Source: a virus
DNA: 64,000 nt
Virus record (IMG/VR): IMGVR_UViG_3300037501_000241
Reading direction: 5' to 3' (one strand)
Positions 2,734 to 52,512 of the stretch are shown in pieces. Position numbers and translations under genes: made by a program. Position 1 is the first letter of the stretch. The number at the start of each line of letters is the position of its first letter. Below the pieces are notes generated by a model. The model was not told the origin of the DNA, did no database searches, and was given only the letters and a program-made list of their open reading frames with translations.

Positions 2734-3189
2734 TTATGGTTGTGCGTATGCATTTTCTTCCAATTCGGAAGCAACAACAACTACTACATCGTTATCACTT
2801 TCAGAATATGGATCAAATGCAAGAACTTTAACCTGTCCACCTGTAATATCCGACATTCCAACCACGAATGACCCAGAAGTTACAGTTGAGAAATCCTTGT
2901 ATAAATTTAAGTCTGATTGAGCGCAATCCTCACTTGATGGGAAAACCATTTCCACATCGCGGGCAATAACAAATTCAGGACAATACTTGTCAACAGTAGT
3001 GTTATCGGAGTCAACAGTTATCGTTTCTGTTGCCCATCCAAGAATTTTTTGTCCCGCGCTTACTGTCTCAAGATAACCATCTGAATTTATACCAACAGGG
3101 TCCGCTTCAGCAAAAGCACCACTGTTTTTAGCAATCAATGGCTGACCTCTCTCTACGCGAACAGGCGCTCTGTGAAATAATTGTGCCAT
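2734..3189 (-). CDS. Capsid decoration/cement-like protein (paralogue of 3213..3674)
   Basis: Position beside the capsid gene; colinear similarity to its neighbour (DGYLETVSAGQKILGW vs SGYLALATTSSQIVGF; FDPYSESDNDVVVV vs FDPNNEADDDDVVV). Confidence 0.6.
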   Translation of the reverse strand: MAQLFHRAPVRVERGQPLIAKNSGAFAEADPVGINSDGYLETVSAGQKILGWATETITVDSDNTTVDKYCPEFVIARDVEMVFPSSEDCAQSDLNLYKDFSTVTSGSFVVGMSDITGGQVKVLAFDPYSESDNDVVVVVASELEENAYAQP

Positions 3190-3212
3190 ATAGATTTATT
3201 ATTAAAGGTTTA

Positions 3213-3674
3213 TTATGCCTGCGATGAACCATATTGCTGCGGTTCAGCGCAAGTTACTACTACATCGTCATCATCAGCTTCGTTATTCGGATCAAAACCT
3301 CTAACAAGAAACTGGGCTTTTGAACTTGCGGCAAGATTCAAAGTCATTGCTCCGGTTGTTACAGAACCAAAATCGCACCACGCGCCAATATCGGTTTGCG
3401 TGCAATCTTGGTCTGAAGGATATGCCATATAGATATTCATCATTGCGTCCACATATTGCGGGCAATAAAGCTCTACTGTGGCATTTGTTGAAGCGGTTGT
3501 CTTATCTTCCAAGCAAAAACCAACAATCTGACTTGAAGTTGTCGCAAGAGCCAAGTAACCACTTGAATCAATATATACAGCATCAGCTTTTGAAAATTGC
3601 GTGTTTGCAACACCGATTGTCGGATACCCAATAAATCTATCAACGGCACTTTCGTGTAAAAATCTTTGTGCCAT
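3213..3674 (-). CDS. Capsid decoration/cement-like protein (paralogue of 2734..3189)
   Basis: As for its neighbour; 153 aa. Confidence 0.6.
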   Translation of the reverse strand: MAQRFLHESAVDRFIGYPTIGVANTQFSKADAVYIDSSGYLALATTSSQIVGFCLEDKTTASTNATVELYCPQYVDAMMNIYMAYPSDQDCTQTDIGAWCDFGSVTTGAMTLNLAASSKAQFLVRGFDPNNEADDDDVVVTCAEPQQYGSSQA

Positions 3675-3692
3675 ATTTTAATTATAAGTTAA

Positions 3693-4364
3693 CTATTTTT
3701 TAAGAAACTTTAACGCTTTAGGATTAATTGCTTTTACAAATTGAACCGCGGGATCGTTTTCATCGTAATAGTCAGCTCCCTCAGAAGAAGCTTTTGAAGC
3801 AGAAAATGATTTCATAATATCTTCTCTTTTCTTTTCCATTCCCTCTTTAATTCCTTCATTATAAATAAGTTGCTGATTGGCAAGTAATTTTGCCGCCTTA
3901 ATCTTCTCTTCATTCGTTTTATAAAGCGGAGAATTTTTAACTGTTTCAAAATGGAGTTCAATTAATTTTGCTTCATCTTCCGATGACGCAACTTTATTTA
4001 TTCCATCTTTAATCTCCTTTTCAAAAATAATACTTTTAAACTTTTCCTCAATTCCGTCAACCTTTTCATTAACCATTTTTTGTATGGTTTCTGTTAAAAT
4101 TTCCGCATCAAGTTTAGGCTCTTTCTTCATTGATTCAATGGCTCGGTTCTTGTGGTTAATTATTTCGTTCGCTTTTTTAAGTTCTTCTTTGTAAAAATCA
4201 ACTTCCTTGTTATCTGAACTTTCTTGTTTTACACCGTCTCCGCTTTTCTCAGCGTTTTCGGTAGTTTGTTCAGCTTGCGATTTTTGTTTATTCTCATTAT
4301 CGCCTTGAGTTTTACCAACTTTATTTTCCGACTCGTTGGTTTGGGTCTGTGTTTCGTCTGCCAT
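3693..4364 (-). CDS. Capsid scaffolding protein
   Basis: Acidic disordered N-terminus then coiled coil, between portal and capsid genes; start taken at MADETQ (4364). Confidence 0.65.
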   Translation of the reverse strand: MADETQTQTNESENKVGKTQGDNENKQKSQAEQTTENAEKSGDGVKQESSDNKEVDFYKEELKKANEIINHKNRAIESMKKEPKLDAEILTETIQKMVNEKVDGIEEKFKSIIFEKEIKDGINKVASSEDEAKLIELHFETVKNSPLYKTNEEKIKAAKLLANQQLIYNEGIKEGMEKKREDIMKSFSASKASSEGADYYDENDPAVQFVKAINPKALKFLKK

Positions 4365-8842: not shown

Positions 8843-9314
8843 CTATTTTATAAACTATATTGCCGGCAACATTCTCGGTACTTTTGTCAGTAATTAAACG
8901 AATTCTCTTAAAATAAATATCATTTATAGCGGCAACATCTTTCGCTTGAATAAGTTCAGGATGTTCTTTATATTTGCTTTTAATTAACTCATTTGTATCA
9001 TCAACAACTTCATAAGCATTATCAAGAATTTTTTTCATTTTATCGCTATAAAGTCCTTTGGTGAGCTCATCCATATCCATATCCCGTATCTTCTCAATAA
9101 ATCCGCGAGGACATCCAATTTCTTTCTCAAGAGTAGATACAGGGATACCTAAATCAATCATAGAACGAACCGATAAAAGTTCTTCTATTGTTTCATATCT
9201 GAATAAACCAAATTTTTTATATCTTTCAATAAGAATATTAATCGTATCGCCAAATTTTTGTTTAGCTTCTTTAGAAATTAAATCTATGATAGCTAAATTT
9301 TTCTTTTTTTTCAT
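8826..9314 (-). CDS. terS: Putative terminase small subunit
   Basis: Directly upstream of and overlapping terL; HTH-like segment LGIPVSTLEKEIGCPRGFIEKI; assignment mainly positional. Confidence 0.5.
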   Translation of the reverse strand: MKKKKNLAIIDLISKEAKQKFGDTINILIERYKKFGLFRYETIEELLSVRSMIDLGIPVSTLEKEIGCPRGFIEKIRDMDMDELTKGLYSDKMKKILDNAYEVVDDTNELIKSKYKEHPELIQAKDVAAINDIYFKRIRLITDKSTENVAGNIVYKIVDYGK

Positions 9315-9631
9315 CTCAATTTTCGTTTAAACATCCGTTGTATGCGCGTGTAAATCGGCACTTTGAACCACGCCTTTACCGGCACCAATCTTGTTAGAAC
9401 ACTTACAGGCAAAATATCAAATAAAAGAGATTTATAATACATCAGCGCTTTATCCTGCACAATCGCTTTATTCCACCTTATCTGCGGACACTCTTTAAAT
9501 CTTTCATCTTCTTTGTAAATTGATATTCCACAGAATAGGCACACTTCGCTTCTAAAACAATGTTTCTTTTCAGCTATCTTTTTACGGACAAAGAACCATT
9601 CACAAATGAGATGATATATTTTTTTAATCAT
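9311..9631 (-). CDS. Hypothetical Cys-containing protein
   Basis: 106-aa ORF with ATGA overlap into the terS candidate. Confidence 0.65.
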   Translation of the reverse strand: MIKKIYHLICEWFFVRKKIAEKKHCFRSEVCLFCGISIYKEDERFKECPQIRWNKAIVQDKALMYYKSLLFDILPVSVLTRLVPVKAWFKVPIYTRIQRMFKRKLR

Positions 9632-9634
9632 AAA

Positions 9635-10015
9635 GCAAACCGCCCTCCTAACCTACTTACAACCAAATAATAGTTAAAATAAATTGTAGAAATCTTATAC
9701 GAGACTAAAAGCTTTAAAAAAAGCGTATAAGCGTATTAAGTTATCTCCTCTTAACAACACAGCGGTCATAGGAAAAGGAGAGCGGATTAAATTTGTTAAT
9801 AAACATCTTGAAGAGATAGTCATCAGACCAGATGTAGTGGCTCTTCAAGATGCAATGCCTCGTGGCTTAATGTCTCTTTGACAAAAGATAGTTGCCTGAG
9901 ATAGCTAATCTCTTCACGGTTATTGAGATTGGTCAGTTCCCTTCATCCGTAGTTCCTTAAAATCAGCATTGATGATTTTTCCAGTAGTCGGATGACAATT
10001 TATTAAACGACAATA
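9635..10015 (-). ncRNA. Candidate multi-domain structured RNA in the late-operon leader
   Basis: Stems tcatccg/cggatga, aaaatca/tgatttt, aatctc/gagatt, catcttgaagag/ctcttcaagatg (12 bp perfect), cttatacg/cgtataag, ccgctctcc/ggagggcgg. Confidence 0.45.
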
Positions 10016-10038
10016 AACACATTGTATATGTGTTTTAA

Positions 10039-10077
10039 TTATCTCCTCTTTTTTCCCCTCTTTTTACCACACGCCAT
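10039..10077 (-). CDS. Putative 12-aa basic micropeptide MACGKKRGKKRR
   Basis: ATG-TAA frame about 65 nt after the late promoter, in the tttttATG context used by other genes. Confidence 0.3.
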   Translation of the reverse strand: MACGKKRGKKRR

Positions 10078-10148
10078 AAAAATGAAATGCGGTTATGTTT
10101 TTACGCAGATTTGAAAATTTGTTTGCTTAACTTTCATTCTGCAAATAT

Positions 10149-10177
10149 ATCATAACATATTTTTAGAAATATGTCAA
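10149..10177 (-). promoter_or_regulatory. Sigma70-type promoter of the late (terminase/structural) arm
   Basis: TTGACA-17 nt-TATGAT with extended -10 TG on the minus strand. Confidence 0.75.
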
Positions 10178-10365
10178 TAAGGTATTTTTTAAGCTATTTG
10201 GGAATTATCAACAAGGAGCGATTTTGATTATATGGTTTGCTGTGTGATGTCAAGTAATTTAAAAAATGTGGTTATGGGGAATTTGACCAAACCACAAAAT
10301 ATAACTTCCAAAACCCCCCATACCCGCTTCATAATTTATTATCAACGACACACCGCATAACGCCT

Positions 10366-10430
10366 CTAATTTCTATTTTTTCTAATTTCTATTTTTTCTA
10401 ATTTCTATTTTTTCTAATTTCTATTTTTTT
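10366..10430. repeat. Four tandem copies of 16-bp ctaatttctatttttt
   Basis: Read directly; non-coding. Confidence 0.95.
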
Positions 10431-10529
10431 CACTAATTAACCGCCAAAATACCAACACCTTATTATGCAACAACATACCGCAACCACCGCCAAAACTTAT
10501 CAACACCCCGACAAATCATAACACAAAAG

Positions 10530-10538
10530 TTATCCACA
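10530..10538 (+). promoter_or_regulatory. DnaA box
   Basis: Perfect TTATCCACA about 50 bp upstream of an early promoter. Confidence 0.6.
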
Positions 10539-10588
10539 AACACAGCCAATCCAGCAAATAACCTTATAATTTAGCTTTAAATAATCTC

Positions 10589-10617
10589 TTGACAATAATT
10601 TTAAGATGTTATATAAT
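10589..10617 (+). promoter_or_regulatory. Consensus sigma70 early promoter
   Basis: TTGACA-17 nt-TATAAT. Confidence 0.9.
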
Positions 10618-10662
10618 GATAATATAAAAGGTCGTTTAATAAAAAAACTAATCTCATCTTAT

Positions 10663-10824
10663 ATGAATATAAATTCTATAAGCGGAACACGCTTGCGATA
10701 TTATCTCATTATTTCTAAAAACTATATTGAAAACTCTAAAACATCTGGGGATATTCAAACAACAATAGACAAAGACATAAAAGAAATAGAATTGGTCTTG
10801 GCGGAAATCAAAGAACAGAAATAG
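10663..10824 (+). CDS. Small early hypothetical protein (53 aa)
   Basis: Start moved to ATG 10663 because ATG 10606 lies inside the promoter. Confidence 0.6.
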   Translation: MNINSISGTRLRYYLIISKNYIENSKTSGDIQTTIDKDIKEIELVLAEIKEQK

Positions 10825-10875
10825 AGGCGAACAGACAAGGGGGGCGGAGATGTTCGTCTCACGCTCTCCTTGCCT

Positions 10876-10993
10876 TTACAGGTATAAATAACACTATAAC
10901 GCAAAATTTTGCGAAATTTGGCGCTTACAGGTATAAACTATCATCTTTAGTATAAACTAACACTATAACGCAGAATTTTGCGAAATTTGGCAC
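10876..10993 (+). repeat. Imperfect tandem duplication containing palindrome cgcaaaattttgcg
   Basis: taacactataacgca(a/g)aattttgcgaaatttggc twice (offset 69 bp); ttacaggtataaa twice. Confidence 0.85.
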
Positions 10994-11007
10994 TATTAAC
11001 ACTATAT

Positions 11008-11367
11008 ATGAATATACAAGCGCAAATCAAACAATTAAGCAGAACGAGCAAATCAAAACTTAAAAAAGATGTCTGTCGAATAATCTTAAATCATCTTGAC
11101 GGATACGACAATCCGCTTAACTTCTTTTTAGATCTTGAACGGAATGGATGTCAAAGCGGAATAATAGGCGAGCTTAGCTATTATGCCAATACTCATAAAT
11201 TTTTCCTAAAACACTGCGAGGAAATTATGGAACTTTTGAATGAGCTAAAATACCAAACAGGAGAAGAGATTAAAATCAACGGAGAAGATAGAATGAATTT
11301 TTACGCTTGGCTTGCTTTTGAAGAGACGGCAAAAAAAATTATAGAAAATGACTTGATGATGGAATAA
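11008..11367 (+). CDS. Early phage protein with GCxSG...LxYY motif
   Basis: NGCQSGIIGELSYY motif resembles a widespread uncharacterised phage family; start at ATG 11008. Confidence 0.7.
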   Translation: MNIQAQIKQLSRTSKSKLKKDVCRIILNHLDGYDNPLNFFLDLERNGCQSGIIGELSYYANTHKFFLKHCEEIMELLNELKYQTGEEIKINGEDRMNFYAWLAFEETAKKIIENDLMME

Positions 11368-12280: not shown

Positions 12281-12289
12281 GTTAATCTC

Positions 12290-12318
12290 TTGACAATAAT
12301 TTTAAGATGTTATACAAT
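12290..12318 (+). promoter_or_regulatory. Sigma70 early promoter (duplicate of the 10589 module)
   Basis: TTGACA-17 nt-TACAAT; 31 bp identical to 10583-10613. Confidence 0.88.
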
Positions 12319-12368
12319 TAAAGTATTCAAGGTCGCTTAATAAAAAAACTAATTTTTAAAACACTCTT

Positions 12369-22828: not shown

Positions 22829-22966
22829 ATTCTCGGTGCTTGCGAAGATGCAAGCTAAGTGTCTGTCGTATGCCGAAATGTCAGTAAAAGTTTAGATATT
22901 TACCTCCTCCACAATTTATCTAAATGATGAAGAACAAAGTAGGCGCATAAGAAACAGCCGAGAAAT
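22829..22966 (+). ncRNA. Candidate small RNA with anti-SD loop
   Basis: Closing stem ttctcgg/ccgagaa, hairpin gcttgc/gcaagc, hairpin tttagata/tatctaaa with ACCTCCT in its loop. Confidence 0.5.
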
Positions 22967-51995: not shown

Positions 51996-52512
51996 AAAGC
52001 AAACCGCCCTCCTAACCTACTTACAACCAAATAATAGTTAAAATAAATTGTAGAAATCTTATACGAGACTAAAAGCTTTAAAAAAAGCGTATAAGCGTAT
52101 TAAGTTATCTCCTCTTAACAACACAGCGGTCATAGGAAAAGGAGAGCGGATTAAATTTGTTAATAAACATCTTGAAGAGATAGTCATCAGACCAGATGTA
52201 GTGGCTCTTCAAGATGCAATGCCTCGTGGCTTAATGTCTCTTTGACAAAAGATAGTTGCCTGAGATAGCTAATCTCTTCACGGTTATTGAGATTGGTCAG
52301 TTCCCTTCATCCGTAGTTCCTTAAAATCAGCATTGATGATTTTTCCAGTAGTCGGATGACAATTTATTAAACGACAATAAACACATTGTATATGTGTTTT
52401 AATTATCTCCTCTTTTTTCCCCTCTTTTTACCACACGCCATAAAAATGAAATGCGGTTATGTTTTTACGCAGATTTGAAAATTTGTTTGCTTAACTTTCA
52501 TTCTGCAAATAT

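Follow-up and report, generated by a model that had tools for sequence, protein, structure and literature searches.

Genome organisation and the late promoter

The window, i.e. the whole stretch of 64,000 nt that was analysed, consists of 1.51 tandem copies of a single circular phage genome of 42,364 bp, with 0 mismatches between the copies. Features at 1-21636 are repeated at +42364, and because the window holds roughly one and a half genome copies, the leader copy at 51996-52506 is the same element as the one described here and not a second one. The genome has a GC content of ~31-33% (33% in the leader region) and is organised in two arms, with the replication and early genes on the + strand (10.6-27.5 kb) and a late arm of 24.6 kb on the - strand. 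The products of the early arm comprise a DUF3987 helicase-like protein, a primase zinc finger, two methylases, an AAA_24 ATPase and a PD-(D/E)XK nuclease. An HTH protein, also early, is encoded at 27161-27544. An alternative genetic code was ruled out, as TGA terminates genes in ATGA overlaps and the long ORFs are all intact under table 11.

The late arm begins with a gene of 106 aa (9311-9631, - strand; gene 1), whose start is the 3' limit of the leader, followed by a TerS-like gene (9314-8826) and TerL (8842-7529), the genes being coupled by ATGA overlaps. The 106-aa protein is basic, carries an H-x6-CxxC...C motif and ends in a KRKLR tail. A HMMER search of 1.84 billion representative proteins returned a single homologue, P0123 (109 aa, 42% identical, aligned end to end), and no lead was obtained from Pfam, PHROGs, fold or Atlas comparisons. 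TerL matches Terminase_6C, a nuclease domain (1.6e-9). Its identity to entries of the phage collection is at most 29%, and no cultured phage is close; the closest TerL proteins found are 54-58% identical, and the nearest genome-binned (prophage-like) relatives belong to Patescibacteria-type MAGs (32-37% identity).

A preliminary description of this DNA had placed a strong - strand promoter at 10149-10177, about 510 nt ahead of the first substantial ORF. We confirmed the promoter as a near-consensus sigma-70 site (TTGACA, 17-nt spacer, TG-extended TATGAT; 11/12 matches) with a predicted transcription start at ~10142 and, as the first real gene starts with the ATG at 9631, the gap of ~510 nt as well. 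In the promoter scan of the 24.6-kb late arm this was the one - strand site scoring at least 11/12, i.e. a single sigma-70 promoter for the whole late operon, as in the lambda Q/PR' arrangement. The promoter spacer is filled by a strand-neutral palindrome of 20 bp (ACATATTT-N4-AAATATGT, 10155-10174), whose exact match is unique in the genome and which is a candidate operator or factor-loading site.

Several repeats were observed on the early side of the late promoter. Between the late and early promoters, a 16-nt unit (TCTAATTTCTATTTTT, 10365-10436) is repeated perfectly in tandem ~4.5 times, near a DnaA box (TTATCCACA) at 10530; these repeats are iteron-like and may mark an origin. Two early promoters (10585-10660 and 12286-12360) are near-identical modules of ~75 nt (ATCTCTTGACAATAATTTTAAGATGTTATAyAAT ... 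GGTCGyTTAATAAAAAAACTAAT), with a DnaA box shortly upstream of each. In the early leader (10875-10994), two units of ~50 nt (TTACAGGTATAAA ... ACACTATAACGCAnAATTTTGCGAAATTTGGC) were seen by eye, each with the palindrome CGCAAAATTTTGCG.

Coding capacity of the leader region

The ~510-nt region holds no credible gene. A frame-specific Markov model trained on the phage genes scored 9.1 ± 7.0 in-frame and -23 ± 12 off-frame, compared to -1.4 or less throughout the leader. The best leader frame, which is continuous with the 106-aa gene, was read through nine stops and compared by HMMER to the 1.84 billion representative proteins. Matches were confined to residues 171-276, which correspond to the 106-aa gene, and consisted of the 106-aa protein itself and its 109-aa homologue; the 170 leader codons matched no protein. 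Searches of all six read-through frames against Pfam and PHROGs were empty for the leader, and no homologue was found for the only long open stretch on the + strand. The frame with a short HEALH stretch, which had been mentioned in connection with a possible decayed gene, scored as plainly non-coding and had no match in Pfam or PHROGs.

A decayed gene was thus ruled out by the lack of homology in any frame, by coding scores below the gene range and by the full length of the gene 1 homologue. The broader explanation that the region is a spacer or remnant (decayed gene, recombination leftovers), with functionless hairpins, could draw on intermediate coding scores at 9740-9800 and 9980-10040, where the reading frame is that of the 106-aa gene, and on a leader sequence that is not conserved in any relative compared. 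However, the frames were without protein homology even with their stops read through, gene 1 and its homologue are of the same length, the leader folds far beyond its shuffles and long structured gaps recur in relatives (see below), and we consider this explanation very improbable.

Folding of the leader

Folded as - strand RNA, the whole leader reached -134.1 kcal/mol compared to -107.2 ± 6.2 kcal/mol in dinucleotide shuffles (z -4.37), and none of 100 shuffles was as good, and the folding check set by the preliminary description came out in its favour. The + strand also folded well (z -3.67). The stems proposed there were all recovered: tcatccg/cggatga enclosing aaaatca/tgatttt, aatctc/gagatt, and ccgctctcc/ggagggcgg enclosing cttatacg/cgtataag (8-bp repeat at 9694-9701/9724-9731) are present both in the sequence and in the minimum-energy fold, and the perfect 12-bp inverted repeat was located at 9804-9815/9841-9852. 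A gcc-acga-ggc stem does exist, but with merely 3 bp it is trivial.

The 5' end of the leader is formed by a module of two hairpins (10066-10142, - strand), namely P1, which extends from the predicted +1 (10142-10105), and P2 (10093-10066). The module had a folding energy of -22.8 kcal/mol on the - strand (z -4.23; 0/200 shuffles as good) compared to a z of -0.43 on the + strand, an asymmetry that is due to four G.U pairs and that confines the structure to the - strand RNA. This strand specificity points to RNA rather than DNA as the folded species. The module is followed by a purine-rich tract (AAAAAGAGGGGAAAAAAGAGGAGAUAA, 10039-10065), which includes the first copy of a repeated 12-mer (10050-10039), and by hairpin P3 (10005-10047), a weak terminator-like element with the core AAACACAU/AUGUGUUU and then AUUGUCGUUUAAU.

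The middle of the leader holds three further hairpins on the - strand. P4 (9943-9995), in which UCAUCCG/CGGAUGA surrounds AAAAUCA/UGAUUUU, had z values of -2.07 (- strand) and -3.37 (+ strand) and is uninformative on strand because all its pairs are Watson-Crick. P5 (9907-9930; AAUCUC/GAGAUU) competes with an alternative pairing GAGAU/AUCUC, and its local z is weak (-1.3). In P6 (9794-9853), the perfect 12-bp stem is joined by a closing G.U pair and encloses a second stem of 4 bp, with UUUAUUAAC coming next; the folding of P6 (9853-9803) was significant (-22.2 kcal/mol, z -3.97) and symmetric between strands. In the leader of the window, a simple scan called no canonical intrinsic terminator, and P6 was missed by that scan because its loop is 25 nt. 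P6, with a large loop and an interrupted U tract in its tail (UUUAUU), is the best terminator or pause candidate of the leader.

The 3' domain P7 (9636-9789, - strand) is closed by a long-range helix of CCGCUCUCC (9785-9777) with GGAGGGCGG (9648-9640), which encloses the second 12-mer copy (9752-9741) and the hairpin CUUAUACG/CGUAUAAG. It reached -42.6 kcal/mol (z -3.20) on the - strand compared to -28.1 kcal/mol on the + strand, i.e. 14 kcal/mol weaker. Since the 5' module and P7 are both biased to the - strand, selection seems to have acted on the transcribed RNA at the two leader ends at least; the palindromes in the middle are neutral in this respect.

The 12-mer AAGAGGAGATAA, noted before as occurring twice, is present exactly two times per genome copy (9741-9752 and 10039-10050); with one mismatch allowed, six matches were found in the window compared to 0.36 expected. 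Its copies were rejected as ribosome-binding sites, as neither precedes a start codon (both copies close a tiny ORF with K-R-R-stop) and also because SD-like sites occur in just 4 of the 53 phage genes. Either copy can pair over 9 bp with the P6 3' arm (-12.3 to -12.5 kcal, compared to -19.5 kcal for the 5' arm of P6 itself), and we conjecture that such pairing could underlie an alternative fold. Pairing of the leader with the phage RNA carrying anti-SD words (22829-22966) was discarded, with 76/300 shuffles as good.

The main rival is a role at the level of DNA, in which the region just upstream of the terminase module serves for cos/pac packaging recognition or protein binding: TerS or a regulator would attach to the inverted repeats, with the GC-rich island by gene 1 as the cut site or cohesive end. 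In lambda-like phages, cos sites usually lie directly upstream of the terminase genes, which is the position of the present region. Most stems are perfect Watson-Crick repeats and as such equally usable as DNA sites, in keeping with the good folding of the + strand as a whole and with P4 and P6, which fold as well or better on that strand. Furthermore, the GC-rich island before the first ATG is the one feature in common with L081, the nearest relative compared (GGAGGGCGG vs GGGCGGAGGGC), and GAGATA occurs four times, two in each orientation, compared to 0.37 expected. This enrichment is, however, lost after correction for the ~2000 hexamers tested, and the 5' module and P7, which rely on G.U pairs, lose much of their stability when the opposite strand is folded. 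As a circular or concatemeric assembly, the record defines no termini. A cos site and a transcribed leader are also compatible rather than mutually exclusive, since lambda cos itself lies within the late transcript. We consider a DNA-level role unlikely.

Translation start of the first late gene

Translation initiation in this phage makes little use of SD-like sites, which were found at 4 of 53 ORFs genome-wide; starts lie in tracts rich in A/T, although promoters of the canonical TTGACA/TATAAT type are used. One of the four sites (AGGAGGGCGG, 9640-9649, - strand) lies 9-12 nt before the ATG of gene 1. The 3' arm of P7 is this AGGAGG element directly before the first gene, and its partner CCGCUCUCC lies ~130 nt upstream. 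The start region of gene 1 had an opening energy of 8.0 kcal/mol (rank 7 of 50 genes), so occlusion is moderate and not extreme, and the proposal that the pairing of P7 with the gene 1 start may damp translation receives moderate support.

Leaders of related phages

No DNA homologue of the leader was found in the phage collection, in IMG/VR via TerL or the 106-aa protein, or among 240 loci by blastn or tblastn. The nearest metagenomic loci compared were L081 (53% TerL identity), L082 and L083 (42-43%) and L001 (40%). An alignment with the L081 leader was marginal (z 2.6; 3/100 shuffles as good) and was dismissed as not significant after seven comparisons.

The leaders of the nearest relatives compared differ from that of the window in sequence and are similar in layout. 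In L081, a perfect TG-extended promoter (3086-3114) precedes a 5' hairpin, which is followed by GAGAUAAUAAAAC and a canonical terminator (3185-3206); the structured gap of ~300 nt after it (z -3.3) ends in GGCGGAGGG just before the first ATG. L082 combines a promoter (2925-2952) with a long hairpin at the 5' end, a tract of purines and a canonical terminator (3035-3056). By eye, the purine tracts of L081 and L082 lie at matching relative positions. Strong structure was also found in the L083 leader (1888-2230; z -7.9), where a 16-bp hairpin abuts the start codon, in a second L081 leader (2584-2860; z -5.0), which is closed by a ~20-bp helix of GGAGGAG/CUCCUCC words, and in the gaps of L084 (z -4.9) and L091 (z -3.4). 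Excess gap structure was absent in L001, L090, L162 and L161 (z near 0 to +1), which counts against the proposed leader function. The layout of consensus promoter, 5' hairpin, purine tract, terminator and long structured gap therefore recurs in the nearest relatives compared and is not universal. In L001, the 400-nt gap before the terminase module (3437-3833) carries at least five TTGACA-type motifs without excess structure (z +1.1) and has the appearance of a cluster of promoters or binding sites, as opposed to a folded leader.

The canonical terminators of L081 and L082, which lie 65-100 nt after an equally strong promoter, much like in lambda 6S RNA, also suit the explanation that the promoter makes a separate short RNA (~135 nt to P3 or ~345 nt to P6) and that the late genes are served by an unrecognised, activator-dependent promoter nearer gene 1. 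The 5' module, as the most RNA-specific part of the leader, would fit such a product. On the other hand, the - strand from P6 to gene 1 had no promoter-like site in the promoter scan, neither a late activator nor a sigma factor was recognised and P3 is a weak terminator, which makes a separate short RNA improbable.

Search for known RNA families and late regulators

The earlier remark that no known family was recognised agrees with the Rfam 15 search of the leader, which yielded chance-level matches alone: the best scores were 15-20 bits compared to gathering thresholds of 40-65, and all had E values of 0.4 or worse. The sole echo near P3 was a chance-level match to the STnc350 terminator (E 4.8). 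Two specific suggestions of the preliminary description did not stand. For a put-like RNA, we built a covariance model from eight elements (HK022 putL and putR plus six from other phages), which recovered HK022 putL and putR with scores of 95 and 46 bits, respectively. The same model found nothing in the window, L081-L084 or L001; with filters off, its best score in 9400-11100, which spans the leader, was 4.1 bits (E 0.58). A packaging role like that of phi29 pRNA was excluded because RF00044 had no match at E values up to 10 and because the phage packages with a classical TerS/TerL pair, not with a phi29-type motor.

A comparison of the late and early leaders showed similarity at chance level both by plain scoring (204/300 shuffles score as well) and by composition-aware scoring (27/200 shuffles as good). 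Two words are present in sense in both leaders, CGCTCTCCTT at 9775-9784 (-) and 10862-10871 (+) and GTCGTTTAATAAA at 9999-10011 (-) and 10631-10643 (+). They were rejected as boxA or put-type twin sites, being at chance level by shuffling. Their spacing of 227 nt in the late and 231 nt in the early leader is an unexplained coincidence.

A self-sufficient processive antitermination RNA, comparable to put, EAR or conAn2 and unrelated to them, which would ride the polymerase through the 24.6-kb operon, was considered in this context. It would account for one promoter serving a very long operon. The 77-nt module of two stem-loops at +1 has the position and size of putL, whose two stem-loops lie right at the promoter +1 (PMC9378689), and the size, poor conservation and short GC-rich boxes of the leader recall conAn2 (PMC8191782). 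However, the put model had no hit, Rfam gave no EAR or other match, the early leader has no related second copy, with the common words at chance level, and the late arm is without an excess of internal terminators that would need suppression. We consider such an RNA quite improbable. There is only a slight chance that the leader or its 5' module represents a novel RNA class that acts in cis in processive antitermination or as a late switch, functionally akin but unrelated to put and conAn2, and with which a group of SD-poor, low-GC uncultured phages would take host polymerase from one constitutive promoter through the late operon.

Pfam scans of 27 phage proteins recognised no antiterminator, sigma factor, late activator or Q-like gene. 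This speaks against a leader that depends on such a factor; as Q families are diverse, the missing Q family is weak negative evidence.

Discussion

A near-consensus promoter, a region without coding capacity, significant and partly strand-specific folding, and a layout that recurs in relatives together suggest that the region is the untranslated 5' leader of a single 24.6-kb late (packaging/structural) transcript and acts in cis as RNA. We would give this reading about an even chance of being right. An mRNA leader is the simplest reading, in preference to a free-standing RNA or to the new large ncRNA suggested in the preliminary description, and most likely the region is a regulatory leader of a type ordinary in phages, new in its sequence and belonging to no known family. 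We regard it as a well-documented candidate that has no family support.

The proposed mechanism begins with a gate, which would be needed because a constitutive-looking promoter lies before structural genes. This sigma-70 promoter would fire into a leader of three parts. The two-hairpin module at +1 probably stabilises the RNA or modifies the polymerase, after which the terminator-like P3 and then the 12-bp P6 with its U-rich tail may halt or delay most transcripts. Read-through into the 24.6-kb operon would then depend on a factor made by the phage or on an alternative fold, and the 3' domain would pair the start region of gene 1 with the upstream CU-rich strand and thereby damp translation. 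The canonical promoter-proximal terminators of the relatives and the U-rich tails of P3 and P6 point to conditional termination according to the PR'-tR' logic of lambda. As all structural genes apparently depend on one host-type consensus promoter, the switch probably resides in the leader or in the promoter palindrome. That the leader is transcribed, that transcripts end at P3 or P6, that a read-through factor exists and that translation is damped are all inferences.

Late-gene timing is poorly understood in phages without recognisable sigma factors, activators or Q proteins. If the leader gates transcription, an uncultured lineage of phages would contribute a late switch made of RNA, and the succession of 5' hairpin, purine tract and terminator would provide a search pattern for metagenomic phages.

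Among known systems, phi29 pRNA (RF00044) resembles the leader in being a structured RNA encoded near packaging genes and in nothing else; the present phage has TerS and a nuclease-bearing TerL, and its RNA would be an mRNA leader. The put RNAs of HK022 act on the zinc-binding domain of the RNA polymerase beta' subunit without protein factors, and their two copies, putL and putR, serve two operons. Like them, P1 and P2 form a structured, potentially cis-acting RNA just 3' of a promoter (77 nt from the predicted +1), a likeness in anatomy only. Unlike put, the leader has no match to the model and no second related copy, and the host is probably not enterobacterial. The conAn2 RNA belongs to the bipartite conAn antitermination system of Gram-positive conjugative plasmids, is 260-600 nt long and poorly conserved, and follows the conAn1 gene; it is a large non-coding region that opens a very long operon and contains a short GC-rich box and stem-loops (PMC8191782). 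The present leader has a comparable anatomy (510 nt at 33% GC, with GC-rich boxes of 9 nt), and the resemblance is one of anatomy only: no ORF that could be a conAn1-like partner lies between promoter and leader, gene 1 is downstream and of no known family, a phage late operon is compared with a plasmid conjugation operon, and homology would not be expected.

The late control region of lambda comprises the PR' promoter, the qut site, the 194-nt 6S leader RNA, the tR' terminator and the antiterminator Q, which binds in the promoter spacer. The phage described here differs in its longer leader (510 vs 194 nt), in a late operon that is divergent from the early genes and not downstream of Q, and in terminator candidates of its own that are non-canonical. 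It shares with lambda one strong sigma-70 promoter, a late operon of ~25 kb, terminator-like hairpins before the first late gene, with canonical terminators in L081 and L082, and a symmetric site inside the promoter spacer, which is where Q binds in lambda and which is here a candidate factor-binding site.
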